Positions 28,263-44,987 of a DNA stretch of 64,000 nt are shown piece by piece. Below the pieces are notes generated by a model. It had not been told where the DNA came from. It ran no database searches and saw only the letters and a program-made list of their open reading frames with translations. This stretch comes from Terriglobia bacterium (GTDB lineage: Bacteria; Acidobacteriota; Terriglobia; JAIQFV01). The stretch is taken from positions 64,196-128,195 of the forward strand of contig JAQUPQ010000007.1 of assembly GCA_028716525.1 (NCBI GenBank). Reading direction: 5' to 3'. How positions within the stretch are numbered: position 1 is the first letter of the stretch; each line of letters begins with the position of its first letter. The position numbers and the translations under genes were made by a program.

Positions 28263-28325
28263 TCGATCGAACGTGCCGATAGACAGGATCAGTCGGATCA
28301 GCAGTTCAGGCACATCACGACTAAC

Positions 28326-29639: not shown

Positions 29640-31217
29640 GTGAATCTCAATATCTTGAACCGAATGGTGGTGGCTGTCGTAATCAGCACGGTGTCGTTGG
29701 TGGGATGGACCATACCGACCAACGCCCAGCAACCACCGCAGGAAGAGCAACAACCGCAGAAAGACCAGAAACAGCAGAAAGACAAAAATAAGGAGCAACC
29801 GCCGGCGCAGCAACAACCGCGCGGCCAACAGCAGCCCCAGCAAGATCAAAGCAAACAACCACACCAACAACCTGCTGAACGGCAACAGCAACCGGACCAG
29901 AACAAACAGCAGCAAGAGCAAGATAAACAGCAGCAAAAGGCCCGGCAGCAGGATCAGCAGAATAAACAGCAGGAACAACGGATTCAGCAGCAACAACAGC
30001 GGGTCCAACAGCAGCAACAGCAGGATCAGCAGAACAAACAGCAACAGCAGCAACAACAACAGCAACAGCGCGTTCAGCAGCAGGATCAGCAGAACAAACA
30101 GCAGGAACAACGGATTCAGCAGCAGCAACAGCGGGTGCAACAGCAGCAACAACAACAGCGCGTTCAGCAGCAGGATCAGCAGAACAAACAGCAGGAACAA
30201 CGGATTCAGCAGCAGCAACAGCGGGTGCAACAGCAGCAACAACAACAGCAACAGCAAAAGGACCAGCAGAATAGAGAGCAGCAACAACGCGTTCAGCAGC
30301 AACAGGATCAGCAGAATAGACAGCAACAGCAGCGCGTCCAGCAGCAACAACAACAGCAGCAGCAAAAGGACCAGCAGAATAGAGAGCAGCAACAGCGCGT
30401 CCAGCAGCAACAGGATCAGCAGAATAAACAGCAACAGCAGCGCGTCCAACAGCAACAACAACAGCAGCAGCAAAAGGACCAGCAGAATAGAGAGCAGCAA
30501 CAACGCGTTCAGCAGCAACAGCAGCAGCAGGCTAAGCAACAACAATGGCAGCGGGACCAAAATTGGCAACAGCGCGTACAGCAACAACAACAGCAAGACC
30601 AGAATCAGCAGCAAGCACGCCTCTCGCAACAGCGTCAACAGCAGCTTATTACGGAGCAACAGCAGCGTCTCACTCAGTACCGGCAAAATTTAGATCAGCA
30701 GCAGAGTGTCTGGCAGCGGCAAACATCAAATCTTCAGCGACAAGGGCGCACGGCTCAATACCGTTTTCAGCAGCAATATTGGGACAACGTACGCCAGCAG
30801 CGATTTCGTCTCAATGATCGCCACGATTACGACAATGATCCATACTTCTATACGGCTTGGAACTATCGTTACAAGCGGGGCAACCGCTACTACGAGACGA
30901 ATCAATACGGGGCCAATTTGCTTCGGGAGGCCGTGAGCTACGGTTATGAGCAAGGCTTCCTGGCCGGACAGGCAGACCGGCAGGATCGCTGGCGTTATAA
31001 CTACCAGGCCTCCTATGCCTATCAAGACGCGAACTACGGCTATGACGGTTTTTATGTAGCCCAGGATGAATACAACTATTACTTTCGGCAGGGTTTCCGT
31101 CGCGGCTATGAAGATGGCTACTACAGCCGCTATCGATACGGCAGCTATTCGAGCGGGAAGTACACAATCCTTGGCGCCATTGTGGGGTCAATCCTCGATA
31201 TGCAAGCGCTTCGCTAA
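29640..31217 (+). CDS. secreted Gln-rich tandem-repeat protein with Tyr/Arg/Asp-rich C-terminal domain
   Basis: GTG start after TAAGGAGG. Signal peptide MVVAVVISTVSLVGWTIPTNAQQ. About 380 aa of QQDQQNKQQEQRIQQQQQRVQQQQQQ-type repeats. C-terminal …YGYEQGFLAGQADRQDRWRYNYQASYAYQDANYGYDGFY… ends in hydrophobic TILGAIVGSIL. Confidence 0.7.
   Translation: MNLNILNRMVVAVVISTVSLVGWTIPTNAQQPPQEEQQPQKDQKQQKDKNKEQPPAQQQPRGQQQPQQDQSKQPHQQPAERQQQPDQNKQQQEQDKQQQKARQQDQQNKQQEQRIQQQQQRVQQQQQQDQQNKQQQQQQQQQQRVQQQDQQNKQQEQRIQQQQQRVQQQQQQQRVQQQDQQNKQQEQRIQQQQQRVQQQQQQQQQQKDQQNREQQQRVQQQQDQQNRQQQQRVQQQQQQQQQKDQQNREQQQRVQQQQDQQNKQQQQRVQQQQQQQQQKDQQNREQQQRVQQQQQQQAKQQQWQRDQNWQQRVQQQQQQDQNQQQARLSQQRQQQLITEQQQRLTQYRQNLDQQQSVWQRQTSNLQRQGRTAQYRFQQQYWDNVRQQRFRLNDRHDYDNDPYFYTAWNYRYKRGNRYYETNQYGANLLREAVSYGYEQGFLAGQADRQDRWRYNYQASYAYQDANYGYDGFYVAQDEYNYYFRQGFRRGYEDGYYSRYRYGSYSSGKYTILGAIVGSILDMQALR
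29945..30540 (+). repeat. near-perfect tandem DNA repeats (about three 90-nt units followed by about three 108-nt units) inside the Gln-rich gene
   Basis: Identical blocks occur at 30071 and 30161 (cgttcagcagcaggatcagcagaacaaacagcaggaacaacggattcagcagcagcaacagcgggtgcaacag…). Further blocks sit at 30254, 30362 and 30470 (agcaaaaggaccagcagaatagagagcagcaaca…). Confidence 0.8.
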
Positions 31218-31434
31218 GGACTGCAACGGCGGTATCTGAAACAAGCGCCCGGCTCCATCGACCGAGAAGAGCCAGTGGAGTCGGGCGTACCCCCTTGCGA
31301 GAGGGGGGCAGCCGGAAACATCCATGAAAAACAGACGGACTTCCATTCTGAATTCCAGGGGAGCGTGTGACCCGACCGATTTCTTGGTCCAGCGGGAGAG
31401 CCACCAACACTGAGCAGCACCCTCACAGATTGGG

Positions 31435-31507
31435 CTGAGCAACTTTGACCAACTTAGTGAGCCGTACGGAACCGACACGCGCTTCGCCTTCGGATATACA
31501 CATGATG
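31435..31507 (+). promoter_or_regulatory. copy 4 of the conserved promoter module (variant -10 GGATATACA)
   Basis: CTGAGCAACTTTGACCAACTTAGTGAGCCGTACGGAACCGACACGCGCTTCGCCTTCGGATATACACATGATG. An extra TGAGCAG lies ~25 nt further upstream. It precedes the RcnB-like gene. Confidence 0.65.
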
Positions 31508-31588
31508 TAACGTTGATTCGCTGAGATGTACGCCTACATGAACTCAGGATTTCAAAACGGAAAACTCAATATGACTTGGAGAAAACTT

Positions 31589-32020
31589 ATGAAGACACGA
31601 TGGTGGATGACTGCTTGTGCGACGGCGCTGCTGGCATTGATGTGCAGCGCAGCTGTAGCACAAGACCGGAATGACCATGACAATGACCGGAATCGCGGCC
31701 AGAGTAAGAAGGCGTATCGCCAGTTCAACGAGAATCAACGCCAATACGCGCGCACGTATTACGAGCAGCACCATGACCAGGGCCTCTTTCGACAGGACAA
31801 CCGATGGAACGACGACTACGAAAGCCGGATTCATCCGGGCTACGTGCTCGATAGAGATATGCGCAGGCTGAGTCGGCCGGCACCCTATGATTTGACGCGA
31901 GGTTTGGGCCGTCCTCCTCGCGGCTACCGTTACGTCGTCATCGGCGGACATGTGGTTCTGGTTGACAATGCGTATCGCGTTCATGACGCAATTCACTTTG
32001 AGATTAACGTTGGACATTGA
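31589..32020 (+). CDS. secreted RcnB-like protein
   Basis: Signal MKTRWWMTACATALLALMCSAAVAQD. C-terminal …LSRPAPYDLTRGLGRPPRGYRYVVIGGHVVLVDNAYRVHDAI resembles the RcnB/YohN family signature. Confidence 0.5.
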   Translation: MKTRWWMTACATALLALMCSAAVAQDRNDHDNDRNRGQSKKAYRQFNENQRQYARTYYEQHHDQGLFRQDNRWNDDYESRIHPGYVLDRDMRRLSRPAPYDLTRGLGRPPRGYRYVVIGGHVVLVDNAYRVHDAIHFEINVGH

Positions 32021-32163
32021 CGTAGAAGAGATCCGCTTCCTCACGATGGCTGGCGGCGCGGAATTTACCCAGTACAGAAAGCTGAGATTCTGCGAGCCAA
32101 GTCGTTGTCGTCGCCTCTACGTCACTTGGTAAATATTTCGACAGGGCATTACAAGGAGCAACC

Positions 32164-32346
32164 GTGATGAAGCCAAGCACCAAAAATAAGGCTGAAGGCA
32201 AGTTTCACGAAATGAAGGGCAAGGTCAAGGTGAAAGCAGGACAACTGACGCATAACCCCGATTTGGAAGCCGAGGGCTCAGTTGAAAAGGTGGCCGGGAA
32301 GATTCAAGGAATCATCGGCCGGGTGGAGAAAGCAATCCAACAATAA
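32164..32346 (+). CDS. CsbD-family general stress protein
   Basis: MMKPSTKNKAEGKFHEMKGKVKVKAGQLTHNPDLEAEGSVEKVAGKIQGIIGRVEKAIQQ matches the CsbD KxxGKxKExxGxxT…LEAEG pattern. Confidence 0.75.
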   Translation: MMKPSTKNKAEGKFHEMKGKVKVKAGQLTHNPDLEAEGSVEKVAGKIQGIIGRVEKAIQQ

Positions 32347-32433
32347 CAACACCGGCTCGTAGTCCTAAATAGTTCGTCAAGGGAACTGCGGACACGCCGG
32401 TCAGTGAGTGTAAGTACAAAAAAGGAGCTTAAA

Positions 32434-33123
32434 ATGAAAAGACTTAGTCTGATTTTTCTGTTGTTGACTTTCTGTACAACGTTATTTGCCGGTGAAAGCC
32501 AACTTCAAAAGGCAACCAACGTTGTGAACGAGATCATGGGGACTCCCGACAAAGGTATTCCTGATGAGTTGCTGGAAAGGGCTGTGTGTGTCGGCATCGT
32601 TCCTTCGCAGGTGAAGTTCGCCTTTGGAGTTGGTGGCACTTATGGACGCGGTGTGCTGGTGTGCCGCAAGGGAGGAAACGGGGCGTGGAATGCCCCGTCC
32701 ATGTTCACCCTGGGCGCCGCGAGTGTGGGATTTCAGATCGGCGGTAAGGCAACCGACGTCGTCTTCCTCGTGATGAATCCTGAAGGTATGAAGAAACTGG
32801 TTCAGGACAGCGTCAAACTGGGCGCCGAATTATCCGTAGCGGCCGGCCCGGTGGGTCGTTCCGCCGAAGGCGCCACTGACGCCCAACTCCATGCTGAGAT
32901 TCTCAGCTACTCCCGGACCCGGGGATTGTTTGCCGGGGCCTCGCTCGATGGGGCCGTGGTCAAGCAAGATAGGGAAGACAACGAGAAGCTCTATGGACGC
33001 AAGGTGACCGCGAAAGAAATTCTGATCGACGGCACGGTGCGCGCTCCTCGGGCTGCTCGGGGCTTGAACAGCACACTGACCAAGCACTCCCCCAAGGGTG
33101 GACAAACGTTCGCCCGATTGTAA
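32434..33123 (+). CDS. SYLF (Ysc84-like) lipid-binding domain protein, secreted
   Basis: Signal peptide MKRLSLIFLLLTFCTTLFAG. Core …GIVPSQVKFAFGVGGTYGRGVLVCRKGGNGAWNAPSMFTLGAASVGFQIGG… is typical of the SYLF/DUF500 domain. Confidence 0.65.
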   Translation: MKRLSLIFLLLTFCTTLFAGESQLQKATNVVNEIMGTPDKGIPDELLERAVCVGIVPSQVKFAFGVGGTYGRGVLVCRKGGNGAWNAPSMFTLGAASVGFQIGGKATDVVFLVMNPEGMKKLVQDSVKLGAELSVAAGPVGRSAEGATDAQLHAEILSYSRTRGLFAGASLDGAVVKQDREDNEKLYGRKVTAKEILIDGTVRAPRAARGLNSTLTKHSPKGGQTFARL

Positions 33124-33560
33124 GGACTAACCAGGGCAGCAGGGCGATCGTCGACATCATCGACCTCGCCCTCTGACCTGGGCACGTTCGCGGCCTGCGG
33201 CCTTTCATCAAGTTGAGCACGGCCAATGACATGATCAGGTACCTCCCCCGCCCCCAAACGGTTCTTCCTCCGCTCGGGTGGGATCAGAGGTGCGGGAGGG
33301 CTGGAAATGAGAACCTCCAAAAAGGCGCACTTGAGAGGCATTATCTTCGGCCGTGTGTGAAAGTCCTGCCGATTTTGGCGGCCCTGCGCGAAAAGCAGGG
33401 GGATTGGTACATCGTCAGCCCTAAGAGTTGACTACACGGAATTCCCGGGGAATTCTTTGTTTGCATTGAACTCGCTCTGGGGAAGAAGTCGGCGTCAAGC
33501 ACTCCGGCTGATTGAAATCGCCGTCTGAATGGCGGCCAGTAAGAATAAGGAGAATGGATT

Positions 33561-35108
33561 ATGAGGGCTCAATGGATTTCCAGAATTCGTCGCGGCATGG
33601 GTGCGGCTTGTGTCACTTTTGTCTTTGCCGCCGTTGGAATGGCTTCTGATCGCGTGGCAGTGCCAGAGGGCACTGTAATCGAATTGCAGACGACTTCATC
33701 GCTCGATTCCAAGACTGCCCAGCAGGGCGATACCTTCTCGACAACCGTTGTGCGCTCGATCTATGTCGATGGCATTCTGGCTATCCCGCAGGCAAGCTCG
33801 GTCGATGGACGGGTGACGAACGCGAGGCCGGCTGTTCGAGATTCTCAGTCGGGTGTGATCGGCGTGGAGTTTTTTCGTTTGAGGCTTCCCGATGGAACCT
33901 CTTATGACCTTTCCGGCGGATTGACCAGCCTGAAGCCGGGTGAGCGTGGAGATAATTCGGGCCGCAATAACGTCTTCATCGGAGGAAGCGGGAAAACGGT
34001 CATTGGCGCGCTGGCCGGTGGTTTATTCGGTACGGGTTCCGGAATGCTCAACTCGTTGTTGTCGGCCGGGTCGGAGGCGCAACTGCCCGCAGGATCCAAC
34101 ATCGCGATGCAACTCGTGAACGCGATTACGATTACGCCGACCGATCCGCAAACTCAGGATCCAGACGAAACAAATCGTCGTACCGTCTATACCTCCACGA
34201 GGATGGTGCGGAGTGCCCAAACGGCGCTGCACGACCGGGATTTCTACAACGGATCCATTAATGGTCAACTGGACCGCCAGACTCGCCAAGCCCTCGCTGA
34301 TTTCCAAAGCCAAAACGGACAGCCGGTGACCGGCGATCTGGACCAGCAGACCGCTGCCCAGCTTGGATTGATCGGGAGCAACCAGGGTTCTGAATGGACC
34401 GATCGTCAGCTTGCCGCCTCGATTTACCGAAAGGCGCAATCGCTTCAGAAGAATTATGAGTCAAGCTTGGGAATTCAGGTCAACGACATCCGTGCGGGGT
34501 TGACCTCCGATCGACTACTGACCGAAGGGGATCTGGACCTCCTGCTCCAGGCCAATAGTTTCTCAAATGCCGCCGCTTGGTATCAGCAAGCTACTGCGAA
34601 TGCCCCCAATGTTGAAGGTCCCAGGATCGCCGCCCACATCCTCGAGAGCAGTGCCCAGCGAGTGGAAGCAGGTTTGCTGAGGACGCAACAAAATTCTCAG
34701 TTCAGGCAACAATGGGCAGGAATCCAGTCAGACTTAAATCGCGTGGGTGTCAACAACTCGGAGGACAACAACTCCGGGTCGGTTCCGGACTACAATTCCG
34801 GTCAGGCTTCGAGCACCGGTCATTTTCAATGGCAAGGATTGGTCGACGGAAGCGATAACATCCGATTGCATGGCTCTCGCGTGGACATGGCCCATTTGAC
34901 CGCGGGGCAAGTTCAGCAGGCCACCTATCAACTCTCATCAGCACTTCCGCTCAGTCCTGTCCAGGTCACCTTGCGCAAGGTCCGTGGAAGAGGCCAGATT
35001 CTTCTGTTGGAACAGCCGACCGCTTCCAATAACTACACCGCGGTGGTTCAAGTGAACGATCAGGACGCTTGGGGAAGTGCGTGGTATGAATTTACGCTTG
35101 ATTGGTAA
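33561..35108 (+). CDS. secreted protein with glycine-zipper segment and putative peptidoglycan-binding (PG_binding_1-like) domain
   Basis: Signal peptide. Gly-zipper VIGALAGGLFGTGSGM. ALHDRDFYNGSINGQLDRQTRQALADFQSQNGQPVTGDLDQQTAAQLGL resembles PG_binding_1. Confidence 0.5.
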   Translation: MRAQWISRIRRGMGAACVTFVFAAVGMASDRVAVPEGTVIELQTTSSLDSKTAQQGDTFSTTVVRSIYVDGILAIPQASSVDGRVTNARPAVRDSQSGVIGVEFFRLRLPDGTSYDLSGGLTSLKPGERGDNSGRNNVFIGGSGKTVIGALAGGLFGTGSGMLNSLLSAGSEAQLPAGSNIAMQLVNAITITPTDPQTQDPDETNRRTVYTSTRMVRSAQTALHDRDFYNGSINGQLDRQTRQALADFQSQNGQPVTGDLDQQTAAQLGLIGSNQGSEWTDRQLAASIYRKAQSLQKNYESSLGIQVNDIRAGLTSDRLLTEGDLDLLLQANSFSNAAAWYQQATANAPNVEGPRIAAHILESSAQRVEAGLLRTQQNSQFRQQWAGIQSDLNRVGVNNSEDNNSGSVPDYNSGQASSTGHFQWQGLVDGSDNIRLHGSRVDMAHLTAGQVQQATYQLSSALPLSPVQVTLRKVRGRGQILLLEQPTASNNYTAVVQVNDQDAWGSAWYEFTLDW

Positions 35109-35181
35109 GTTGAAACTTAATGCGCACGACCGCCGAGACCACGCCTGGGGCGTTTGACAGTGAGGGGAAAGGAAGACACAC

Positions 35182-35406
35182 ATGAACAAGTTTACTGTGG
35201 GGCTCGTCCTGTTGATTATCGGAGTGGCTCTGCTCCTGGTCGGCGGGATTTCCTATACAACTCAGGAAAAAACCCAGATAGGTCCGATCGCCATCGAGCA
35301 TCCGGAAGAGCATCACATTCCCTTCTCGCCCTTAGCGGGAGCGCTTCTGAGTTTGTCGGGTGGGGCTTTAATGCTTACCGGGCGCGGCAAAAGCCATCAA
35401 GAGTAA
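35182..35406 (+). CDS. small two-TM membrane protein
   Basis: MNKFTVGLVLLIIGVALLLVGGISYTTQ…LAGALLSLSGGALMLTGRGK. RBS-like GGGGAAAGGAAG upstream. Confidence 0.45.
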   Translation: MNKFTVGLVLLIIGVALLLVGGISYTTQEKTQIGPIAIEHPEEHHIPFSPLAGALLSLSGGALMLTGRGKSHQE

Positions 35407-35425
35407 CTTCACGCAAGAGAGAACG

Positions 35426-36340
35426 ATGGGCAAGACGATGAGGGGTTTCCTTCTTGTGCTGCTTTTCCTGTTCAGTGGCAGTTCCGTTCTTAAAGCGCAG
35501 ATGGACCCCTATTTCACTGCTATCAATTATCCTGTTCCGCAGGACACGTTGATGGTGATGCTGCTGTCGGACTTCCAGTCCGCGCGATCCAGCAACGATT
35601 TCTTCACCGGCATGGGTATGGTGCAGTATGGGCTCACACCCCGCTGGACGGTGGGGTTTATGGCGGAGGGGCAGAAAATCTTCGGTTTGCCTGCCACCTA
35701 CGGGGGGCTGCGGATCAATAGTTACTTTCGCGTTTTTCCAAACGACCACCTACTGAACTTCACCCTGTATGGCGAGTACGAAGGCCTAAATGGGGCGGCG
35801 TTGTACAAAATGGAGGTTGCCGGATTCGGCGGCGAAGACTTGAATGAGCCGCTGGCGCTGGCACGGCGTACGCCCGTCCGCACTTTCGAGCAACGAGCCA
35901 TCATGTATCATGATTGGGGTCGGGTTAACCTCACCTTCAATTTCATCAATGAGACTGGGCTGGAAAGCGGCGAGAACGACTTCGGCTATGCTTGGGGAGT
36001 GTTTCGGCAGGCTGCATCTATGGCCATGGAGACAGACAAAGACATGGCCGGAATGGGGGGAATGCCGGAAAAGAAAGCGCCTCCGGTGTTTTCATTTCAA
36101 CGGCTGGGCTATGGGCTCGAGATGATAGGGGCGCTCGGCAACACGGATCAATTCGGCTTCGACTGGCAACGTCAGCAGCACTATGTGGGTCCTGTCTTCA
36201 GCTATTCCGTATCGAAACACTGGACCGTTCGCGTCGAGCCGGCATTCGGACTCTCCAGCGTAAGCGATCCGTTTGCGCTGCGAATGGGGGTCGGATATTC
36301 GATCGATCACCTTCTGCATCGCCGATCACCGGCTCCGTGA
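35426..36340 (+). CDS. putative outer-membrane beta-barrel protein (hypothetical)
   Basis: Signal peptide MRGFLLVLLFLFSGSSVLKAQ. Alternating beta-strand-like pattern with aromatic-rich C-terminus. No family recognised. Confidence 0.4.
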   Translation: MGKTMRGFLLVLLFLFSGSSVLKAQMDPYFTAINYPVPQDTLMVMLLSDFQSARSSNDFFTGMGMVQYGLTPRWTVGFMAEGQKIFGLPATYGGLRINSYFRVFPNDHLLNFTLYGEYEGLNGAALYKMEVAGFGGEDLNEPLALARRTPVRTFEQRAIMYHDWGRVNLTFNFINETGLESGENDFGYAWGVFRQAASMAMETDKDMAGMGGMPEKKAPPVFSFQRLGYGLEMIGALGNTDQFGFDWQRQQHYVGPVFSYSVSKHWTVRVEPAFGLSSVSDPFALRMGVGYSIDHLLHRRSPAP

Positions 36341-36477: not shown

Positions 36478-36912
36478 ATGACAACGACAAAACTGCTGTT
36501 CATATCGATTTTCGCATTATTGCTAACGAGCTTTTACGGTGCGCCACTGCAAGCCCAAAACGCCATGCAAAGTTCCGGCATGGACATGAAGAACATGAAA
36601 TCAGAGATGGAGCAGATGCGTGCGCAGATGGAACAGATACAGACCCTGATGAAGGACACCATGGCCAAAATGGCGGCCGCCGATGCCGCCATGAAGAGCC
36701 ACATGGAAACGGAACAGGCCAGCATGAAGAGTCAGATGGAACTGCAGCAGGCCATGATTAACCATCTACAAACTATGACGGATCACATGCAGACTCACAT
36801 GCAGATGATGACTGACCGCATGGCCATGAAGCCGGATCCCATGGATGTTCACAAGAAAAGCGGGGCGACGAAGCAGAAAGATAAAAAGATGATGGATGAT
36901 CAGAAGAAATGA
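36478..36912 (+). CDS. secreted methionine-rich coiled-coil-like protein (MrpX-like candidate oxidant sink or metal binder)
   Basis: Signal peptide. About 25 Met in 144 aa with 3/4-residue spacing (MDMKNMKSEMEQMRAQMEQIQTLMKDTMAKM…HMQTHMQMMTDRMAM). Lys-rich tail. Confidence 0.6.
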   Translation: MTTTKLLFISIFALLLTSFYGAPLQAQNAMQSSGMDMKNMKSEMEQMRAQMEQIQTLMKDTMAKMAAADAAMKSHMETEQASMKSQMELQQAMINHLQTMTDHMQTHMQMMTDRMAMKPDPMDVHKKSGATKQKDKKMMDDQKK

Positions 36913-37041
36913 GTCTGACAGAGTCCCGTATTCTTCAAGCACACTTTTGCGGGTCGCAAACAGAGCAGAAGACGACAGGGCTGTGCCACCCGACGGGGAT
37001 TTTGCCGGCCCCCCCGATAAGTTCAGCTCTCATCAATTGGC

Positions 37042-37117
37042 CTGAGCAGTTTTGACCGAACCGGCGAGCCGTATTGGACTGACACGCGAATTGGCCAAGG
37101 GTATAAGAGGTGTAGCC
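37042..37117 (+). promoter_or_regulatory. copy 2 of the conserved promoter module
   Basis: CTGAGCAGTTTTGACCGAACCGGCGAGCCGTATTGGACTGACACGCGAATTGGCCAAGGGTATAAGAGGTGTAGCC. Lies 57 nt upstream of the DUF3309 gene. Confidence 0.7.
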
Positions 37118-37173
37118 CGCGATGGCGGCGGGGATCCGCGTGAAGCCGGTAGCACGGGGAGGAGAGAATCGAC

Positions 37174-37329
37174 ATGCTCGCAACTGTTTTGATCGTGGTG
37201 GTACTTTTGATGTTGGTGGGCGCACTGCCCAGATGGTCGCACAGCCGAAGCTGGGGTTATGGGCCCAGTGGAGGGCTGGGCCTGATTGTTGTGATTCTGA
37301 TGGTCCTGCTGCTCTTGGGGCGGCTTTAA
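37174..37329 (+). CDS. DUF3309 family small membrane protein
   Basis: MLATVLIVVVLLMLVGALPRWSHSRSWGYGPSGGLGLIVVILMVLLLLGRL (51 aa). RBS GGGGAGGAGAG. Absent from the ORF track because it is under 60 aa. Confidence 0.7.
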   Translation: MLATVLIVVVLLMLVGALPRWSHSRSWGYGPSGGLGLIVVILMVLLLLGRL

Positions 37330-37484: not shown

Positions 37485-37676
37485 ATGCCTTTACTTCAAA
37501 TATTCTTGGTTCTGATCGTAGTAGGTGTTCTGCTCGGGCTGGTAAATCACTTCGTGCCCATGGCAGGGTCCATTAAGTCGATCTTGAATGCCCTTGTGGT
37601 CATTCTCGTGGTGGTGTGGCTCCTAAATATTTTTGGACTTTTCCATTCCATCTCCAGGATGCACCTGAGGTTGTGA
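37485..37676 (+). CDS. Thivi_2564-like small membrane protein
   Basis: MPLLQIFLVLIVVGVLLGLVNHFVPMAGSIKSILNALVVILVVVWLLNIFGLF. RBS AGGAGG upstream. Confidence 0.5.
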   Translation: MPLLQIFLVLIVVGVLLGLVNHFVPMAGSIKSILNALVVILVVVWLLNIFGLFHSISRMHLRL

Positions 37677-37838
37677 AAAAACATCAGCCGGCGACGGACG
37701 GAACAGCCCGTATGTTCGTCGGAAGCCTTTACAAGATTCACCGATGTTGCTTCGCTTGGACTTCTTCAATCACGGAGTATGCCTGTGTCGCTCATCGTGA
37801 AATTGAACTCTAAGCTCATTAGCGTCGAGGCAACCATG

Positions 37839-38450
37839 AGAATCATACTTAGATCGGCGGTATTCCCGGCTGCCTTGTTCCTGATGCTGGCCGGTTGCAG
37901 CGGAAAACCATCCGACGAGAGTTCGAAGAGTGAAAGCGCCAAGCCTCAGGCCACGCAGGCGGAAACCCAATCGACATCTCAGGGCACCTCGCCCGCCGCG
38001 AAAAAGGCGCCCGAGGAGTCCAAAGCGGTGACTCCTGAGCCGCTCCAGGGCCGCCCTTCGAAGGCTCTCCCGGTGCCGTCCGAAGAGAAATCCAAGACGG
38101 TGTCTGCCGAGCCGAAGAAGTTGCCTACTCAGGACGTCTTCATGTTGAGAGATTCACCACTCGGCGTAGTGAGGTTCGAGCACAAGCTTCACCAGGAACG
38201 GGCAGCACAGAAGTGCGAGACGTGCCATCATGCGTCCCGGGCGGAAAAGCCTGCCAAGGCGGCCCAGCAAAACTGCTTTGACTGCCACACGAAACCCCCT
38301 CAGCCGGGGATGAAAACGGGACGGCAGGCAGCGTTCCACAATCCCACGGCCCAGGCCGGCACCTGCATCGAATGCCACAGGATGCAAAACGCCCAGGGCA
38401 AAAAGGCGCCGACGAAGTGCATGGAATGCCACAAGAAGGAGAACACCTAG
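37839..38450 (+). CDS. tetraheme cytochrome c3-like lipoprotein
   Basis: Lipobox LAGC after MRIILRSAVFPAALFLM. Low-complexity S/E/K/A/P linker. Four CxxCH motifs (CETCH, CFDCH, CIECH, CMECH) within ~80 aa. Confidence 0.7.
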   Translation, partial: RIILRSAVFPAALFLMLAGCSGKPSDESSKSESAKPQATQAETQSTSQGTSPAAKKAPEESKAVTPEPLQGRPSKALPVPSEEKSKTVSAEPKKLPTQDVFMLRDSPLGVVRFEHKLHQERAAQKCETCHHASRAEKPAKAAQQNCFDCHTKPPQPGMKTGRQAAFHNPTAQAGTCIECHRMQNAQGKKAPTKCMECHKKENT

Positions 38451-38579: not shown

Positions 38580-39239
38580 ATGGCCCATCAGAAAAGTCAG
38601 CCGGCCGATTGGTCAGTCTTCTTGGCTGGGTTCCCCAGCGAGAAAACCGCTATCCAGTACGGCGCGAACCGCACGATCTTCTCGGAAGGAGAACCCGCGA
38701 ATTCCGTCTTTTACCTTCGAAAAGGCAAGGTGGATCTCGGCGTGACATCGAAGCATGGAAAAGCAGCGATCCTCGCCCATGTGGGCCCCGGTGAGTTCTT
38801 CGGCGAAGGATGTCTCGCCGGCCAGCGATTGCGCATCGCCACGGCTACCACGATGACCCATTGCAAGCTGGTCAGGATTGCCAAGCCGCTGATGGCGCGC
38901 CTGCTCCACGAACAACACGGTTTCTCGGAATTGTTCCTCACGCATCTGCTTTCACGCAACATCCGATCCAAAGTGGATCTCGTCGATCAGCTCTTCAACT
39001 CCACCCAGAAGCGTCTGGCTCGGACTCTCTTGCTGCTGGCTCATTTTGGCAAGGAGAGCCGGGCCGAAAGTGTACATCCCAGAATCAATCAGGAAGACCT
39101 GGCGCGAATGGTCGGCATATCTCGGTTGCGGATCAGTAATTTCATGAAGAAGTTCAAGAAGCTGGGCTATGTCGATTACACCGGCAGCGGTGGGTTGACG
39201 GTTCGTAGTGGCCTTTTGAGCGTGATCCTGCACGACTAG
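38580..39239 (+). CDS. Crp/Fnr family transcriptional regulator (paralog A)
   Basis: cNMP-binding-like beta-roll (…FYLRKGKVDLGVTSKHGKAAILAHVGPGEFFGEGCLAG…). C-terminal HTH EDLARMVGISRLRISNFMKKFKKLGYVDY. No N-terminal Cys cluster. Confidence 0.8.
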   Translation: MAHQKSQPADWSVFLAGFPSEKTAIQYGANRTIFSEGEPANSVFYLRKGKVDLGVTSKHGKAAILAHVGPGEFFGEGCLAGQRLRIATATTMTHCKLVRIAKPLMARLLHEQHGFSELFLTHLLSRNIRSKVDLVDQLFNSTQKRLARTLLLLAHFGKESRAESVHPRINQEDLARMVGISRLRISNFMKKFKKLGYVDYTGSGGLTVRSGLLSVILHD

Positions 39240-39668: not shown

Positions 39669-40247
39669 CTATCTTCCTTCATCACTTGTAGCCGTGTGAG
39701 CGAGCGGCCTATCACCCCTGACGTAGTCGGCGCCGCCCTCTCCGGTTACCGAGATATCCTGTGCTCCGGTCCGCTCCAAGATGTCCTTGGCGCGCTTCGT
39801 CCACTTCGCATTGTCCGAATGCACGGACAGGAGGATTCCGCCCTCTTTGACCCGCACCTCGTAGCGCAGGGCCTTGTGTTTGGGGATTCCCATCCCAATC
39901 AGCGCGCCAGCGATTCCGCCCACGGCGCCACCTGCGCCAATCCCGGCAAGGACCGCCATGATGGGACCGGCGGCGATAAACGGACCTAAACCTGGTATCG
40001 CCAGGGCGCCGATTCCCACGAGCCATCCCAGTGTGCCACCCACCACCGCGCCGGTTCCGGCGCCTGCCGCAGCGCCCTGTGGCGCCTTGGTGCCTTTCTT
40101 GAGGGCAAAGTCCTTGGAGACTGCTTTTTCCGGAAACAGCACGGAAATATCCGTGTTTCGAAATCCGACCTCCTTCAAGACGTCGACGCCGTTCTCCACG
40201 GCGGCGTAGTTCGGGTAAATACCCAACACCGCTATTTTTGCTGCCAT
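39669..40247 (-). CDS. general stress protein 17M (YflT)-like protein with glycine-zipper membrane segment
   Basis: N-domain IAVLGIYPNYAAVENGVDVLKEVGFRNTDISVLF. Long Gly-zipper GTGAVVGGTLGWLVGIGALAIPGLGPFIAAGPIMAVLAGIGAGGAVGG. Repeated C-domain …GGILLSVHSDNAKWTKRAKDILERTGAQDISV. Confidence 0.55.
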   Translation of the reverse strand: MAAKIAVLGIYPNYAAVENGVDVLKEVGFRNTDISVLFPEKAVSKDFALKKGTKAPQGAAAGAGTGAVVGGTLGWLVGIGALAIPGLGPFIAAGPIMAVLAGIGAGGAVGGIAGALIGMGIPKHKALRYEVRVKEGGILLSVHSDNAKWTKRAKDILERTGAQDISVTGEGGADYVRGDRPLAHTATSDEGR

Positions 40248-40311
40248 GTTCGACTCTCCTTCTGGCGTTCGCCGGGCGACCAAGGGCGCCCCCGGCAACA
40301 TCCGCCTGTGT

Positions 40312-40386
40312 CTAAATTCGGGGCACTTCTTTTATAACCCCGGATAAATTGGATGTCAGTCCAGTAGCGCTCACACGTTTGGTCAG
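40312..40386 (-). promoter_or_regulatory. copy 5 of the conserved promoter module (minus strand)
   Basis: Reverse complement reads ATGAGCATTTCTGACCAAACGTGTGAGCGCTACTGGACTGACATCCAATTTATCCGGGGTTATAAAAGAAGTGCC. Lies ~65 nt upstream of the YflT-like gene start at 40247. Confidence 0.65.
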
Positions 40387-40688
40387 AAATGCTCATCGCC
40401 TTTAATCGGCGCAAATACGCGGCGGCTTCCCGTGCCGAGGCTGGTTGACAGAACCTGCGACAGCAGTTCCCAAGCACCCCACCGGACTCACCAACCTGCT
40501 CCATGGAAAGAAAAATCGGTGTGAGGAATCAATCGAGTGTTTCGATGATAATTTGCAGAGGCTTTGAGGAACAAAAGAGAACCAAAACACTTTTTGGCGG
40601 CTGGAGGTCTCTTGAAGGTGGCGTTGTTCACCGATGGTCTTTCTCGGGATCAGGCAGGCGGCGGAGCCGGTAAAAAATTCACAAACCG

Positions 40689-41132
40689 CTAGAAAGTTTC
40701 CGGCTCCGCCTCAGAGAGGGAGGGCTGGTGTTGCAGACTCGTGTTGGATTGACTTCCTAAAATATTCACCAAACTCAAAATTGAATGGCTGCCACAGGAG
40801 AGGCAGTGATCATTCCTGGCCCGGCTGATCATCTGACAGTCTTCGCACAGCACCGCATGGTCGAGCGGTATGAGGTCGACCGGCTCAGACGTCTTCGCGC
40901 GGCGGCGATGGCGCTCCGCGCTCCGCGCCTGGTCGATGACCTTGCGTCCGGCATCTCCCGCGATCAGCGCCATTGTTCTGGGCCATCGCGCCAGCATCTT
41001 GTCTGTCATGTCCTTCTCCTTCGTTCCCGTCTCGTGTACTGGATTGTTCGTCCAAAGATTTCGCTTTTTCCCGACACTTATACCGTTTGTGATTGGGTGT
41101 GTCAGTTCCACATTGACCACGTATCTGGTCAT
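40689..41132 (-). CDS. hypothetical small protein with C-terminal CxxC…CxxC zinc-ribbon
   Basis: …DHAVLCEDCQMISRARNDHCLSCGSHSIL…. True start uncertain (internal ATGs at 41009 and 40997). Confidence 0.3.
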   Translation of the reverse strand: MTRYVVNVELTHPITNGISVGKKRNLWTNNPVHETGTKEKDMTDKMLARWPRTMALIAGDAGRKVIDQARSAERHRRRAKTSEPVDLIPLDHAVLCEDCQMISRARNDHCLSCGSHSILSLVNILGSQSNTSLQHQPSLSEAEPETF

Positions 41133-41556
41133 AAATGTTCATCCCCTTTACGGAAGGCAAACACCCGGATGGGGTCCGCGGAAATTACGAAGGGCTCAAC
41201 AGGGAACAGGCGCGAGGGCAATCTGTGGGTAGCCGAAGAAGGCTTAATTTGGCGCTATTCACCCGTTGAAGGCAATGGGAGCGGAATTCGGATTTCTCAA
41301 AGCCGCTTCAGATTAGCAACTGCCATCATTGGATTCGGAAACGCGGTAGCGCGTGGCCCTAACAAGTTTCAGTAGTTACTCATTTTGAAAATTTCTTTGC
41401 CGGGGTGAGGGTGCCGCAAATTTATTTCAAAATGAGTCACTACCCAAAGCTCTCATTACGAGGAGCGCAGAGCACCGAACCCATCACGGAATGGAGGCCG
41501 GGTTTGCGGAGGATAAGGGCCGCAAAAATACTCGCATTCCCTACTGCGGGGATGCT

Positions 41557-41859
41557 TTAGCTTTGCAGATTCTTGCGCGGCGCCCTGACGTTCCAGACAT
41601 ACAGGAAGTTGGTATCGCTGGCGGTCGCAACTGTCCGCCCGGCTTTGCGGGTTGCGCGGTTCAGGGCTGAACGTACCTTCTCTTTGCTTTCCACCAATTC
41701 CGCCAAGGGCACTTTGATGGCTGAACCATCCTTCAGCTTGTCGAGATCCTTGAGGATGGTGGAGACAATCTGCCGGTGCTTTCCTTTTCGCCCTTGTGGA
41801 ACGTTGGCCTGAGTTATCGTCCTAAAATGGGCTGGAGTTTTGTCAGCCTGTGGACTCAT
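41557..41859 (-). CDS. hypothetical protein
   Basis: 100-aa ORF with no recognised family. Basic and Lys-rich. Confidence 0.3.
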   Translation of the reverse strand: MSPQADKTPAHFRTITQANVPQGRKGKHRQIVSTILKDLDKLKDGSAIKVPLAELVESKEKVRSALNRATRKAGRTVATASDTNFLYVWNVRAPRKNLQS

Positions 41860-42076
41860 ACCACCTCCGCAAATTTTTGACGTTAAATTTCCGTGACGCT
41901 ATCGTATCTCGACATGACAATAAAGTGCAAGTAAAACTTCGAACCACTAAAGGTTCTAGCCGACGCCCCCCCCACGGTGCAGATCGCTAGCCTAGGAACG
42001 CCGTTATTTCGGCCGATGCGGCGCCCTAAAGGGCTAGAAAAGATTTCAAAAAGAGTTAACCCGTAGCGGCTGTGAC

Positions 42077-42090
42077 TTGATAGTCTTCAA
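42077..42090 (+). promoter_or_regulatory. FNR/CRP-like inverted repeat TTGATagtcTTCAA upstream of the second Crp/Fnr gene
   Basis: TTGAT-N4-TTCAA (one mismatch to TTGAT-N4-ATCAA) at 42077-42090. Lies ~20 nt upstream of a small ORF and ~190 nt upstream of Crp/Fnr paralog B. Confidence 0.25.
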
Positions 42091-42112
42091 GCGGAACAAG
42101 AGAGGAAATGCA

Positions 42113-42268
42113 ATGTCAAAAACGAAAAAACCGAAAACTCATTTTCAGCAGGTTCCGCTGGAGATAGTCAAAGTTATCGCTGAACAAGAAATTCCGGACG
42201 ATAAATTGATGGGAAACAACGTGACCGTGAAACCTCCTCAAAAGAGGAAGAGCAGAAGGCTGTCATGA
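42113..42268 (+). CDS. small basic hypothetical protein (possible leader ORF)
   Basis: MSKTKKPKTHFQQVPLEIVKVIAEQEIPDDKLMGNNVTVKPPQKRKSRRLS. Its stop overlaps the start of the Crp/Fnr gene. Confidence 0.25.
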   Translation: MSKTKKPKTHFQQVPLEIVKVIAEQEIPDDKLMGNNVTVKPPQKRKSRRLS

Positions 42269-43026
42269 TGAGCAAACGAATTTCTATCGGAAGATCCTCC
42301 TTCAGCAAGCAGGGGGATGCTGTTACGGCGCGCAACAAAAAAAGGAAACCCGAGGTTATCACGGCAAATCAGAAGAACCAGTCTGTCGATTGGGAAGCCC
42401 TCCTTGCTGGAATCAACGGAGGGAAAACCGTGCTTGAATACACCGCAAACCGCATCATCTACCGGCAGGGAGATCCTGCGGATTCCGTTTTTTATCTCCG
42501 ACGAGGCAAGGTGAAGCTGACGGTGACATCCCAGGAGGGCAAGGAAGCGATCGTCGCCATTCTGGGCGCCGGTGAGTTCTTCGGCGAGGGATGTCTTGCA
42601 GGCCAACTGTTGCGCGTTTCAACGGTTGTCGCGATGAGCGATTGCTCTTTTGCCCGGATTGAAAAGCCGCGGATGGCGCGCATGCTCCACGAGCAGCACG
42701 ACATTTCGGAATTGTTCGTCACGCACCTGCTTTCACGCAACATCCGCTATGAAGAGGATCTGGTCGACCAGCTTTTCAACTCCAGCGAGAAACGCCTGGC
42801 CCGGATTCTTTTGCTGCTGGCTCATTTTGGCAAGGAAGGCCGATCCGAAGCTGTCGTTCCCAGAATCAATCAGGAAAACTTGGCACAAATGGTGGGCACC
42901 ACGCGTTCGCGGGTCAGTCATTTCATGAACAAGTTCCGAAAGCTTGGCTTTGTCGATTACGACGGCCCTACCGGCGGCGGGTTGATGGTCCATAGTGGTC
43001 TCCTCAGCGTGATCTTGCAAGACTAG
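42265..43026 (+). CDS. Crp/Fnr family transcriptional regulator (paralog B, with Lys/Arg-rich N-terminal extension)
   Basis: Alignable along its whole length with the 38580 gene (shared runs GEFFGEGCLAGQ, SELF(L/V)THLLSRNIR, LLLLAHFGKE, HTH …RSRVSHFMNKFRKLGFVDY). Carries a ~35-aa basic N-extension. Confidence 0.8.
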   Translation: MMSKRISIGRSSFSKQGDAVTARNKKRKPEVITANQKNQSVDWEALLAGINGGKTVLEYTANRIIYRQGDPADSVFYLRRGKVKLTVTSQEGKEAIVAILGAGEFFGEGCLAGQLLRVSTVVAMSDCSFARIEKPRMARMLHEQHDISELFVTHLLSRNIRYEEDLVDQLFNSSEKRLARILLLLAHFGKEGRSEAVVPRINQENLAQMVGTTRSRVSHFMNKFRKLGFVDYDGPTGGGLMVHSGLLSVILQD

Positions 43027-43262
43027 CCTTGGGTAGCTGCAATAGGTGTTGTAGACACGCCCAACTTGCCATGCTGAACGGTGTATCGGGGAGCGAAGCA
43101 TCCCGTCGGAAGGCGTGCTATCAAAAGCAGGGCCTTCGCTCCGGCTCAGTAAGTCCGCTACCGCATGGTGCTGTTTTCTTGCGTAAAGAAACACCCGTAT
43201 CCATGTCAAACCCTCGATAATTCCCACCGGCCCCAGACCGCAGTTCCCTCTCATTAACTGAC

Positions 43263-43337
43263 ATGAGCAATTTTGACCAAACGTATGAGCAGGACTGAAC
43301 TGACCCCGAACGGCTTCCAGGGTATAAGAAATGCACC
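43263..43337 (+). promoter_or_regulatory. copy 3 of the conserved promoter module
   Basis: ATGAGCAATTTTGACCAAACGTATGAGCAGGACTGAACTGACCCCGAACGGCTTCCAGGGTATAAGAAATGCACC. Followed by a ~360-nt leader before the PLC-like gene. Confidence 0.65.
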
Positions 43338-43697
43338 GCTAACTGCCGGTCAGAACTGAAAGTAAGACAGAATGACAAACTGAGGGGGCGAATCAATGAA
43401 GGTATTCCGGACCCGCTTCTTGGCTCCGGTGTGGGGCGTCGTTTCGTTCCTGATCTCGTGCCGGCGGTTGGGGGTTCAGGTGCTCTCGGGTCATCTCGGT
43501 CGGCCCACGCCGGCTGCGCCGTTCTCTATTTTAAGTTTTTTGGGCCTACTTTTCTTCAGTGCGCGCCGCGATTTTCCCAACTTTCTCAGGCCAAGAAAAG
43601 CGCCGGGGATTGCGCTGTGTGCCGGATGATCCATGCGGAAAAAAACAGTGACAACAGAATGGCGGATGCTCCTATGGACATGATTCACGAAACCAAA

Positions 43698-44987
43698 ATG
43701 CGGCCTTCAACCTGGCGCGGTCTTCGATACTTCATTCCATGCCTGTTGACCCTGATCTTCCTGTGCAGCATCCGCGGGGTGTGTCCAGCCTACTCCGTGC
43801 TGACGCATGAACAGGTCGTTGATCTGCTTTGGAAAGACCAACTCCAACCCCTGCTGCTGAAGAAGTTTCCGGATACAACCACAGAGCAACTGCGCGTGGC
43901 CCACGGCTACGCCTATGGGGGGTGTCTGATACAGGACATGGGTTACTACCCCTTCGGCAACCGGTTTTTCAGCGATTTGGTTCACTACGTTCGAAGCGGC
44001 GATTTTGTTGATGCCCTGCTCCTCGAAGCGACCGACGTCAACGAGTATGCATTTGCATTGGGGGCGCTGGCGCACTACACCTCCGACATCGCCGGCCATC
44101 CCTTCGTGAATGCCGCTGTCGCACAAAATTTCCCCAAACTGAGGGCCAAGTATGGGAGCGAGATTACGTTTGCTCAGAATCCCAAAGCCCATGTCCAGAC
44201 GGAGTTCGGTTTTGATGTCGTGCAGGTTGCCAAGCAACGCTATACCTCCGATTCGTACCATGACTTTATCGGATTTCAAGTGTCGAAACCGGTGCTGGAG
44301 CGGGCCTTTCTCAAAACCTACGGAATTGAGCTGAAGGATGTGTTTAGCAGTGTTGATTTGTCCATTGGCAGCTTTCGCCGATCCATTAGCAGCATCATCC
44401 CAGAAATGACCCGTGTCGCACTCCTCCTCAAGAAAGACGAGTTGGTGAAAGAAAACCCCACCTTTACCAAGCGGAAGTTTCTCTTCCACATGAAACGCAG
44501 TGATTACGAGAAGGAATGGGGGAAGGGCTACCAAAAGCCGGGGGTGGGCGCCAGGATATTGGCGGTCTTGTTTAAGCTCATTCCCAAAGTGGGTCCCTTC
44601 AAGGCGCTGAACTTCAAAATGCCAAGTCCGGCAACGGAGACCCTGTATATGAAAAGTGTCAACAACACGGTGGACCAATATGGATCGGATCTCCGGGAAT
44701 GGAGAGCTGGAAAGCTCCTGCTGCAAAACATAGATTTCGACACCGGCAAAATGACAAGAGCCGGCGAGTATACGCTGACCGATGAAGCGTACGCGAAGCT
44801 GCTGGAAAAGCTGTCAGACCGCAAATTCGCAGACATGAACCCGGCCCTTCGGGAAAACATATTGGGTTTTTATCAAGACTTGAAAACTCCCGAATTTGCG
44901 AAGAAGCAACCCGAGAAATGGAATCAGGTGCTCCTTAACCTGGAACAGCTCAAATCGGTGGGGGCGGCAGGAGCCGCACCTCGATAG
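43698..44987 (+). CDS. secreted zinc-dependent phospholipase C family protein
   Basis: Signal-like MRPSTWRGLRYFIPCLLTLIFLCSIRGVCPAYS (alternative start at 43659). HGYAYGGCLIQDMGYYPFGN…ALAHYTSDIAGHPFVN matches the Zn-dependent PLC domain pattern. Confidence 0.6.
   Translation: MRPSTWRGLRYFIPCLLTLIFLCSIRGVCPAYSVLTHEQVVDLLWKDQLQPLLLKKFPDTTTEQLRVAHGYAYGGCLIQDMGYYPFGNRFFSDLVHYVRSGDFVDALLLEATDVNEYAFALGALAHYTSDIAGHPFVNAAVAQNFPKLRAKYGSEITFAQNPKAHVQTEFGFDVVQVAKQRYTSDSYHDFIGFQVSKPVLERAFLKTYGIELKDVFSSVDLSIGSFRRSISSIIPEMTRVALLLKKDELVKENPTFTKRKFLFHMKRSDYEKEWGKGYQKPGVGARILAVLFKLIPKVGPFKALNFKMPSPATETLYMKSVNNTVDQYGSDLREWRAGKLLLQNIDFDTGKMTRAGEYTLTDEAYAKLLEKLSDRKFADMNPALRENILGFYQDLKTPEFAKKQPEKWNQVLLNLEQLKSVGAAGAAPR

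Follow-up and report, generated by a model that had tools for sequence, protein, structure and literature searches.

A conserved composite promoter module and a probable Crp/Fnr-controlled stress or envelope regulon in uncultured Terriglobia

Introduction

How might an uncultured member of the Terriglobia control an island crowded with genes for small secreted and membrane proteins, several of which recall the general-stress proteins of other phyla? The question is raised by a 64,000-nt stretch of a Terriglobia bacterium assembly (GCA_028716525.1, contig JAQUPQ010000007.1) – hereafter the window – and by an island at its positions 29,640–44,987, which a sequence-only reading had likened to the general-stress set of Bacillus, placed under a shared promoter module and ascribed to an analogous but differently wired regulon. 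The best explanation of the sequence is that this region would lie at the heart of a genomic island whose transcription units are regulated together, the same ~75-bp composite promoter (the module) apparently standing at the head of each. On balance, the set of module-headed genes probably constitutes a large and undescribed stress or envelope regulon under Crp/Fnr control.

Acidobacteriota dominate many soils and peats, and Terriglobia are among the most abundant soil bacteria; to our knowledge, almost nothing is known of gene regulation in this phylum, the relevant lineages being uncultured. The genes discussed here come from an open reading frame (ORF) listing and from an independent gene call on a public contig with the same DNA (Logan SRR22315506, locus L001), which agree, and family membership was judged by profile score against the curated Pfam gathering or NCBIfam cut-off. 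The G+C content of the window is 54.5% (~55%), a moderate value and not that of the 'high-GC genome' first supposed.

A promoter module shared across the island

Repeat finding and intergenic alignment revealed an 80-nt element 5′ of transcription units, always in the orientation of the following gene. Its consensus, TGAGCAaTTTTGACCA-N6-TGAGCmGTACTGAACT followed by CTGACA-N17/18-TATAAr, covers ~75 bp as a whole. The corresponding degenerate pattern matches the window eight times, against 0.05 matches expected, and an nhmmer profile retrieves nine copies at E ≤ 8e-9 – 60–78% identical to each other over ~80 nt – with the next-best match at E = 0.39. Most units carry the module, and the proposal of a shared promoter module is thus borne out. 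Seven of the nine copies lie between 29.2 and 43.3 kb and two beyond the island, at 55.2 and 56.7 kb:

29212–29292, + strand: copy 1, partial and weaker (nhmmer E = 1.9e-11), with its own −35/−10 (CTGACC-16-GATAAT), in tandem 195 nt upstream of copy 2
29407–29494, + strand: copy 2 (E = 4e-20; exact pattern at 29424), heading the gene of a Gln-rich (Q-rich) protein
31420–31507, + strand: copy 3 (E = 3e-17), heading the RcnB-like/CsbD/SYLF unit
37026–37114, + strand: copy 4 (E = 4e-21), heading the DUF3309/Thivi_2564/cytochrome c3/Crp1 operon
40323–40412, − strand: copy 5 (E = 1e-19), heading the YflT/ActD-like gene
41074–41159, − strand: copy 6, the weakest (E = 8e-9), heading a 147-aa ORF; the left half of its site B (see below) reads TGGTC
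43245–43333, + strand: copy 7 (E = 1.5e-19), heading orf77 and the zinc-dependent phospholipase C (Zn-PLC) gene
55144–55219, − strand: copy 8 (E = 7e-15), heading genes for EncFtn (54602–55117; EncFtn-like, 132 bits) and the encapsulin shell (53789–54598; Linocin_M18, 293 bits)
56680–56761, − strand: copy 9 (E = 9e-19), heading genes for a DUF5329 protein (56053–56484; 101 bits) and an Fe/Mn superoxide dismutase (SOD; 55325–55960; Sod_Fe_C 131 bits, Sod_Fe_N 96 bits)

The last two copies and the two Crp/Fnr genes inside the island are additions to the earlier gene list, and the earlier reading also did not include that the module is conserved in many species of Terriglobia. The unit headed by copy 3 may reach as far as the gene for a Met-rich protein; in the 437-nt gap 5′ of the gene for a 515-aa protein with a PG_binding_1 domain, the nhmmer profile finds no module. 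A generic sigma-70 scan has a match at 29265–29292, within copy 1; as it demands T at the last position of the −10, it misses the modules and is uninformative about them. The generic terminator scan gave no enrichment of terminator-like sites.

In its upstream half, the module has a pair of 16-bp sites, TGAGCAaTTTTGACCA and TGAGCmGTACTGAACT, which share the form TGAGC-N6-GAmCn and are spaced by exactly 22 bp. The second of these (site B) abuts the sigma-70-type −35 CTGACA, with which it shares 2 bp. The positions of highest information are symmetric G/C pairs – G2/C15, C5/G12, G24/C37 and C27/G34 – which, as a sequence pattern, would fit a 5-N6-5 dyad whose left half is strong and whose right half is weaker.

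Conservation of the module in other genomes

One genome per species was scanned for exact matches to a 41-nt degenerate pattern, which occurs in at least 117 stretches of these species-representative genomes; about one match would be estimated by chance, given 18 fixed and 4 two-fold positions and 1.2e12 sites. Among the matches listed, all are metagenome-assembled genomes (MAGs) labelled Acidobacteriota, Terriglobia or Acidobacteria, save a few labelled Acidimicrobiia; the latter are probably mislabelled, since their proteins are 70–85% identical to those of the window. Profile search of the matched loci yielded at least 244 unique module copies in 115 loci from ~60 assemblies of uncultured Terriglobia/Acidobacteriota.

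Across these copies, information is high at TGAGCA (positions 1–6), T8, TTGACC (10–15), GTGAGC (22–27), TA (30–31), G34 and ACTGACAC (36–43), and low between them, and the 85 copies outside the search pattern have the same positional conservation profile. The spacer between CTGACA and TATAAr measures 17 bp in 155 and 18 bp in 50 of 234 copies, and the first start codon follows at a median of 63 nt from the predicted start site. The modules also tend to cluster, with two or more copies in 52, and three or more in 32, of the 76 full 8-kb loci. What emerges is probably a regulon of an uncultured clade that is governed by a transcription factor and has general-stress-like content. Literature searches on acidobacterial promoter motifs, on CsbD in Acidobacteria and on Crp regulons in Acidobacteriota found no account of its module.

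Promoter class and sigma factors

As judged by their sequence, the −35, spacer and −10 of the module are of the housekeeping (sigma-70) type, and not of the SigB, EcfG or RpoS type. Both CTGACA and TATAAr agree with the consensus at five of six positions, and the 17-bp spacing is optimal. The SigB promoter consensus is GTTTaa-N12–15-GGGwAw, from which the module differs in its CTGACA, its 17/18-bp spacer and its TATAAr; in not being of the Bacillus SigB type, the island is indeed 'differently wired', as had been proposed. The EcfG promoter reads GGAAC-N16-CGTT (PMC7083833), a motif absent from the module, and no linked gene for an extracytoplasmic-function (ECF) sigma factor occurs near the modules.

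Neither ECF nor SigB-type sigma genes were found among 3801 ORFs around modules, the ECF query being one that finds an acidobacterial ECF at E = 4e-26. As to the partner switching of SigB with RsbV and RsbW, neither the window nor these ORFs contain a SigB-type sigma gene. The sole sigma gene in the window is rpoD (21603–23300, − strand), 6 kb upstream of the island beside a DEAD-box helicase gene; considered as a dedicated stress sigma, it was rejected, its product scoring as housekeeping RpoD (NF004208, 570 bits against a cut-off of 555). From the promoter sequence we infer that the modules would be transcribed by the housekeeping RpoD holoenzyme, while their conservation from about −75 to −34 indicates a bound regulator.

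Candidate Crp/Fnr regulators

Two genes of the island encode Crp/Fnr-family proteins, Crp1 and Crp2 (PF00027, 69.7 and 78.5 bits; PF13545, HTH_Crp_2, 40.8 and 40.7 bits), which are 66% identical to each other:

38580–39239, + strand: Crp/Fnr regulator paralogue 1 (Crp1), last gene of a module-headed operon, 1349 nt from the predicted transcription start site of its module
42265–43026, + strand: Crp/Fnr regulator paralogue 2 (Crp2), the candidate master regulator
42113–42268, + strand: conserved 51-aa upstream ORF (MSKTKKPKTHFQQVPLEIVK...), overlapping the crp2 start by 4 nt
41557–41859, − strand: p100, a conserved basic 100-aa protein, divergent neighbour of crp2

The association between modules and such genes extends well beyond the window. 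In ~811 kb around modules there are 44–47 genes of one Crp/Fnr subfamily (220–430 bits to Crp2), which occur in 37 of the 116 module loci and lie at a median of 307 nt from the module's predicted start site, with 32 of 43 no more than 500 nt away. For 28 of the 43 genes, the module comes just after the crp stop codon on the same strand – in the window, copy 7 begins 219 nt past the stop of crp2 – and for nine it stands upstream on the same strand, where it would drive crp or its operon. In a reciprocal test on four long-contig loci chosen via Crp2 homologues, two proved to hold three and five full modules and one a partial copy. As for other types of regulator, the ~811–875 kb around modules contained no OmpR-type (winged-helix) DNA-binding domain and only four NarL-type regulators, against the 44–47 Crp genes.

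The closest relatives of Crp2 with solved structures are actinobacterial CRPs, the best being M. tuberculosis Crp (E = 1.5e-17), and both island proteins align with M. tuberculosis and E. coli CRP over ~180 residues. At NCBI, Crp2 is a Crp/Fnr regulator of an Acidobacteriia MAG, with thousands of metagenomic relatives. Of the cyclic AMP (cAMP) contacts of CRP, the island proteins keep G71, E72 and R82, have V in place of S83 and do not keep T127 and S128. The recognition helix retains the equivalent of R180 and differs at those of 181 and 185, as well as between Crp1 and Crp2, and the TGAGC half-site retains both G's of TGTGA.

The p100 gene is divergently paired with crp2 in the window and in nine MAG loci (p100 identity 72–81%), and its product may be a partner of the regulator. 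The region between the two genes (41860–42268) is strongly conserved in loci L007, L041, L046, L062, L063, L071, L072, L104 and L115, and contains repeated CGTTAA/GCTAA/GTTAAC words in addition to the 51-aa upstream ORF; it may be the entry point of the regulon's input signal. Direct autoregulation of Crp2 through the module was considered and rejected, the divergent region having no module-type site in the window and ten loci. Between the p100 stop and the weak module of the 147-aa ORF there is an inverted repeat (41367–41448; 24-nt arms, 88% complementary) whose minus strand folds at −40.2 kcal/mol (z −4.9); it has no U-tract and could be a terminator or a regulatory hairpin.

Gene content of the island

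The genes on which the likeness to a Bacillus stress set had been built are all present at or near the positions first given, mostly on one strand (15 of the 19 called island genes on +) and with short intra-operon gaps (19–155 nt). The profile searches on CsbD, DUF3309, SYLF, Thivi_2564, the peptidoglycan (PG)-binding protein, cytochrome c3 and Zn-PLC all exceed the curated cut-offs, and the Met-rich protein and the miniprotein with two transmembrane (TM) segments are upheld as well:

29664–31217, + strand: secreted Gln-rich protein, 517 aa, 41.6% Gln; its repeats are degenerate and of the QQQQRVQQQQ type, and its C-terminal domain is rich in Tyr and Arg; module copies 1 and 2 in tandem upstream
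31589–32020, + strand: RcnB-like secreted protein (Pfam RcnB, PF11776, 24.3 bits, under the 25.9 cut-off)
32167–32346, + strand: CsbD-family protein (Pfam CsbD, PF05532, 53.4 bits against 40, residues 8–59)
32434–33123, + strand: SYLF/Ysc84-domain secreted protein (Pfam Ysc84, PF04366, 137.8 bits against 25.1)
33561–35108, + strand: secreted protein with Gly-zipper and PG_binding_1 domain, 515 aa (Pfam PG_binding_1, 50.2 bits against 23)
35182–35406, + strand: two-TM miniprotein, 74 aa, evident from its sequence, with homologues in 13 module-headed units
35426–36340, + strand: secreted all-beta protein, 304 aa, a candidate but unproven outer-membrane barrel
36478–36912, + strand: Met-rich secreted protein, its mature part 21% Met
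37174–37329, + strand: DUF3309 small membrane protein (Pfam DUF3309, PF11752, 75.6 bits against 22.3)
37485–37676, + strand: Thivi_2564-family small membrane protein (NCBIfam NF041949, 63.3 bits against 33; PF28077 in precomputed hits)
37785–38450, + strand: tetraheme class III cytochrome c lipoprotein (Pfam Cytochrom_CIII, 54.8 bits against 22.9; four CxxCH motifs; LAGC lipobox)
39669–40247, − strand: YflT/ActD-like protein with a central Gly-zipper membrane segment
40689–41132, − strand: 147-aa ORF (p147), which has a zinc-ribbon-like Cys4 motif and keeps its synteny to p100 and crp2 in L104 and L115
between the Crp2 and Zn-PLC genes, + strand: orf77, a 77-aa ORF headed by module copy 7
43626–44987, + strand: zinc-dependent phospholipase C-family protein (Pfam Zn_dep_PLPC, 71.5 bits against 26.8), with homologues in 11 module-headed units

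Two of the original assignments hold only in part. The YflT/ActD-like protein passes the ActD cut-off (PF11821, 27–27.5 bits against 25.7) and stays under that of YflT/GSP17M (PF11181, 22.1–22.6 bits against 26.2), matching it over the N-terminal 64 residues only; six of its seven homologues do match YflT (best E = 7e-7), and the assignment is a resemblance of the N-terminal domain, not demonstrated membership. The RcnB-like protein is similarly below threshold, with weak RcnB matches in all five of its homologues (best E = 2e-5).

Other products have no family name. A Pfam search gave none for the 517-aa Gln-rich protein, whose Q-rich counterparts are encoded after modules in more than 20 further loci, and the NCBIfam naming reached no family for the Crp proteins, p100, p147 and the RcnB-like, OMP-like and Met-rich proteins. 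The 304-aa protein has no Pfam or NCBIfam hit, and every one of its 649 relatives is annotated as hypothetical; its AlphaFold2 model, from a 30-sequence alignment, has a signal helix followed by ~13 beta strands and no confident barrel, at a confidence (pLDDT, predicted local distance difference test, 41) too low for a fold search. The true start of the 147-aa ORF is probably 41012, because the predicted start site of its module lies near 41070.

Just 5′ of the island, genes for a stand-alone 145-aa receiver-domain protein and a 262-aa LolA-like protein (27825–29114, + strand) stand without a module; because homologues of both are module-headed in several MAGs, the island may functionally start at ~27.8 kb. 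Directly 3′ lies the gene for a secreted 884-aa protein that combines two Big_5 domains with one that is Ice_binding-like (45117–47771, + strand); no module precedes it. Unrelated neighbours are two radical-SAM genes, one with a SPASM domain (1761–5178), and an acetate kinase and phosphoketolase pair (58540–62136).

Genes downstream of the module in relatives

Counting module copies with homologues of window genes up to 2.5 kb downstream, SYLF is the commonest named family (23 copies), and Crp (18), CsbD and the two-TM protein (13 each), Thivi_2564 (12), Zn-PLC and the PG-binding protein (11 each), LolA-like, Q-rich and YflT/ActD-like proteins (10 each) and RcnB-like proteins (7) also recur. 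Small membrane proteins of the DUF5670 family account for 27 copies, and OmpA-C proteins with a coiled coil recur as well. Among 150 first ORFs, the Pfam tally is Ysc84 7, OmpA 6, BON 5, PG_binding_1 5, DUF5670 3, STAS 3, DUF3309 2 and Crp 2.

As to synteny in related genomes, the gene blocks CsbD–SYLF–(Zn-PLC) and RcnB-like/PG-binding/two-TM are kept, while the order of the blocks is shuffled. In one relative (locus L121, 1717–5229), a module heads a DUF5670 and a LolA-like gene, followed by groES–groEL on the same strand; in this locus a cluster of PAS histidine kinase and response regulator genes adjoins the crp gene. The notion of an analogous general-stress regulon survives as far as content is concerned: CsbD, BON/OsmY-like, OmpA-like and DUF5670 proteins, SOD, encapsulated ferritin and, in that relative, groESL match what is found in the regulons of other phyla. 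'General stress' is a reasonable reading of this gene content, and an envelope, oxidative or stationary-phase programme, for example, would also be conceivable.

A proposed regulatory circuit

In the mechanism that we favour, dimers of a Terriglobia-specific Crp/Fnr subfamily would occupy both 16-bp sites, whose putative centres at about −41.5 and −63.5 would amount to a class II arrangement with an additional upstream site (class III). The circuit may have two tiers, as suggested by the lack of a module-type site upstream of crp2 while crp1 is module-driven: Crp2, together with the ORF before it and the divergent p100 gene, would be the input outside module control, and module-driven paralogues such as Crp1 would reinforce, amplify or diversify the response. 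The presumed output is a range of small secreted, membrane and cytosolic protective proteins – within the island CsbD, SYLF, DUF3309, Thivi_2564, YflT/ActD-like, RcnB-like, PG-binding and Met-rich proteins, cytochrome c3 and Zn-PLC; elsewhere in the window Fe/Mn SOD and encapsulated ferritin; and, in relatives, BON, OmpA, DUF5670, STAS and groESL. Such a programme of stress or envelope protection might fill the role that the SigB, EcfG or RpoS regulons have in other phyla.

A bolder version, which we offer tentatively and regard as somewhat doubtful, is that uncultured Terriglobia run their general stress response through an expanded family of Crp/Fnr paralogues and a portable 75-bp cassette, instead of an alternative sigma factor. 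In such a phylum-specific master circuit, the cassette may have been copied before dozens of small envelope and redox-protection genes, gathering them into islands.

Several observations weigh against a stress regulon of the Crp/Fnr type. The two sites are each dyad-symmetric at only five of eight pairs and can alternatively be parsed as five direct TGAnC repeats (positions 1, 11, 23, 33 and 38; spacings 10, 12, 10 and 5 bp), a layout that another type of regulator would be suited to read. The centres at −41.5 and −63.5 presuppose that transcription starts 7 nt past the −10, and an 18-bp spacer would move them to −42.5 and −64.5. The −10 is TATAA followed by A or G, the T usual at −7 being absent, and near-consensus −35 and −10 elements at optimal spacing are more typical of repressed than of activator-dependent promoters. 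The upstream region of crp2 itself is free of module-type sites, the Crp2-homologue locus L119 has no module within 10 kb (20.7 kb covered), and the co-location of Crp genes with modules may partly be inherited synteny, not independent events. Finally, most of the 150 first ORFs belong to no Pfam family, so the label 'stress' rests on an annotated minority.

Alternative explanations

The strength of the core promoter is where an opposite sign of control has to be considered: the same Crp/Fnr-type protein could be a repressor, the two sites being operators through which it would silence an intrinsically strong promoter until released by a signal. Activator-dependent promoters usually have weak −35 elements, whereas that of the module is near-consensus – it and the −10 each match at five of six positions with optimal 17-bp spacing – and the 2-bp overlap of site B with the −35 would suit an operator. 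The predicted centring at −41.5 and the same-face spacing of 22 bp nonetheless match activator geometry, and module-driven crp paralogues would then form negative instead of positive loops, which is possible; all told, we find repression unlikely, if worth serious thought. If, on the other hand, the five TGAnC words at 1, 11, 23, 33 and 38 were read one by one, the reader could be another, unlinked regulator specific for direct repeats, such as a response regulator that binds TGAnC words at intervals of 10–12 bp, and the Crp genes mere members of the regulon. The conserved asymmetry of left and right half-sites would agree with this, as would the receiver-domain proteins (including homologues of the window's 145-aa receiver) and four NarL-type proteins in module loci, and the two-component cluster that adjoins crp in one control locus. 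Yet 875 kb around modules hold no OmpR-type winged-helix protein and few NarL-type regulators in comparison with the 44–47 Crp genes, and the tight link between crp stop codon and module is left unexplained, which makes such a regulator improbable in our view.

That the module is instead used by an alternative sigma factor as its promoter – one of SigB-like group 3 or of another stress type, with the upstream conservation as an extended recognition element – draws on the −10 without T at −7, which in about two-thirds of copies reads GGGTATAA or GGTATAA and is reminiscent of the SigB −10, GGGTAT, and on the STAS-domain proteins encoded first after 3 of 150 modules. We consider it quite improbable: the −35 is TTGACA-like, not GTTTAA or GGAAC, the spacer is 17–18 bp and not the 12–15 bp of SigB, neither an ECF nor a SigB-type gene occurs in the 3801 ORFs, with only rpoD in the window, and sigma contacts cannot explain conservation from −75 to −45. 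Least credible of all, and very improbable, is a dispersed repeat (MITE-like, that is, resembling a miniature inverted-repeat transposable element, or spread by recombination) or structured leader RNA with no promoter function. The copies are, it is true, clustered and 60–78% identical over ~80 nt, folding of the leaders 3′ of the module is slightly more stable than that of controls (−13.7 versus −10.0 kcal/mol; z averages −0.67), and one leader variant precedes non-homologous genes. Conservation, however, is position-specific and not uniform, with the same positions kept across ~60 assemblies; the element always points toward the gene, at promoter distance; and terminal inverted repeats are absent. 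For 60 copies taken with their leaders, RNAalifold returned 0 base pairs, on which the structured-RNA reading was rejected, and the whole window has no Rfam hit at gathering thresholds.

The leader variant in question (GTGCCTCGAGCTGCCAGCCAGGATCTGGTGGGAGGCGGATG), found straight after the −10 in L101, L091, L047, L079, L096, L058, L054 and others, has weaker forms in the window at 29495–29540 and 37115–37160. As a 5′ hairpin, it may influence how stable the mRNA is or how it is translated.

Significance

With so long a conserved cassette, a whole regulon becomes readable from MAG sequence alone, and the module points to a candidate family of regulators. A first context is thereby given to dozens of small proteins, secreted or in the membrane, that are called 'hypothetical', in the form of putative co-regulation with SOD, encapsulated ferritin, CsbD, BON and OmpA proteins. 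The Crp/Fnr reading also raises the question of whether a factor of this type is used where Firmicutes, Alphaproteobacteria and Gammaproteobacteria use SigB, EcfG and RpoS, respectively; if so, this would be a phylum-specific and undescribed master stress circuit.

Comparison with known systems

The SigB regulon of Bacillus subtilis resembles the island in having csbD and, under one promoter signature, numerous small proteins whose function is not known; it also has a yflT-type gene, to which the island's YflT/ActD-like gene bears a resemblance. The signatures differ, SigB promoters being GTTTaa-N12–15-GGGwAw and those of the island CTGACA-N17/18-TATAAr with two upstream sites; no SigB, RsbV or RsbW genes lie near the island, whose candidate master is a transcription factor and not a sigma, and most island products are secreted or membrane proteins of a diderm. 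The E. coli RpoS regulon includes the BON protein gene osmY, the CsbD-family gene yjbJ, superoxide dismutase, iron-sequestering proteins and many small envelope proteins, and the window and its relatives share this content of BON, CsbD, SOD, iron-storage and small envelope proteins. The regulator there, however, is a sigma factor of Proteobacteria that has a −10 signature of its own, and no RpoS is present in the window or the module-flanking ORFs.

The alphaproteobacterial EcfG/NepR/PhyR response is a Gram-negative system with csbD as a direct target, many small envelope proteins and a hierarchy of paralogous regulators (PMC7083833). The island shares its Gram-negative setting, csbD, the small envelope proteins and the regulator paralogues, but its module has no GGAAC-N16-CGTT and no ECF sigma gene lies near any module. 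Closer in kind of regulator are SdrP of Thermus thermophilus and DdrI of Deinococcus radiodurans, effector-independent Crp/Fnr regulators of stationary-phase, oxidative and DNA-damage stress genes, whose activity is set by their own expression level and not by cAMP (PMC12040651). On the side of likeness, the island Crp proteins are without the cAMP contacts S83, T127 and S128, and one paralogue is module-driven; unlike SdrP and DdrI, the island system has a tandem TGAGC-N6-GAmCn site, an expanded paralogue family and regulons clustered in islands, and the proteins are distant in sequence, neither SdrP nor DdrI being among the best 60 solved structures for Crp2.

In promoter layout, the nearest parallel is with the class II and class III CRP/FNR promoters of E. 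coli, which likewise have a 16-bp core (5-N6-5) near −41.5 – a predicted position in the module – over the −35, and a second site upstream on the same face. The module departs from them in its half-site, TGAGC in place of TGTGA or TTGAT, in its weaker right half-sites, in its minimal 22-bp spacing and in its near-consensus −35 and −10, and the entire 75-bp unit is conserved as a cassette.

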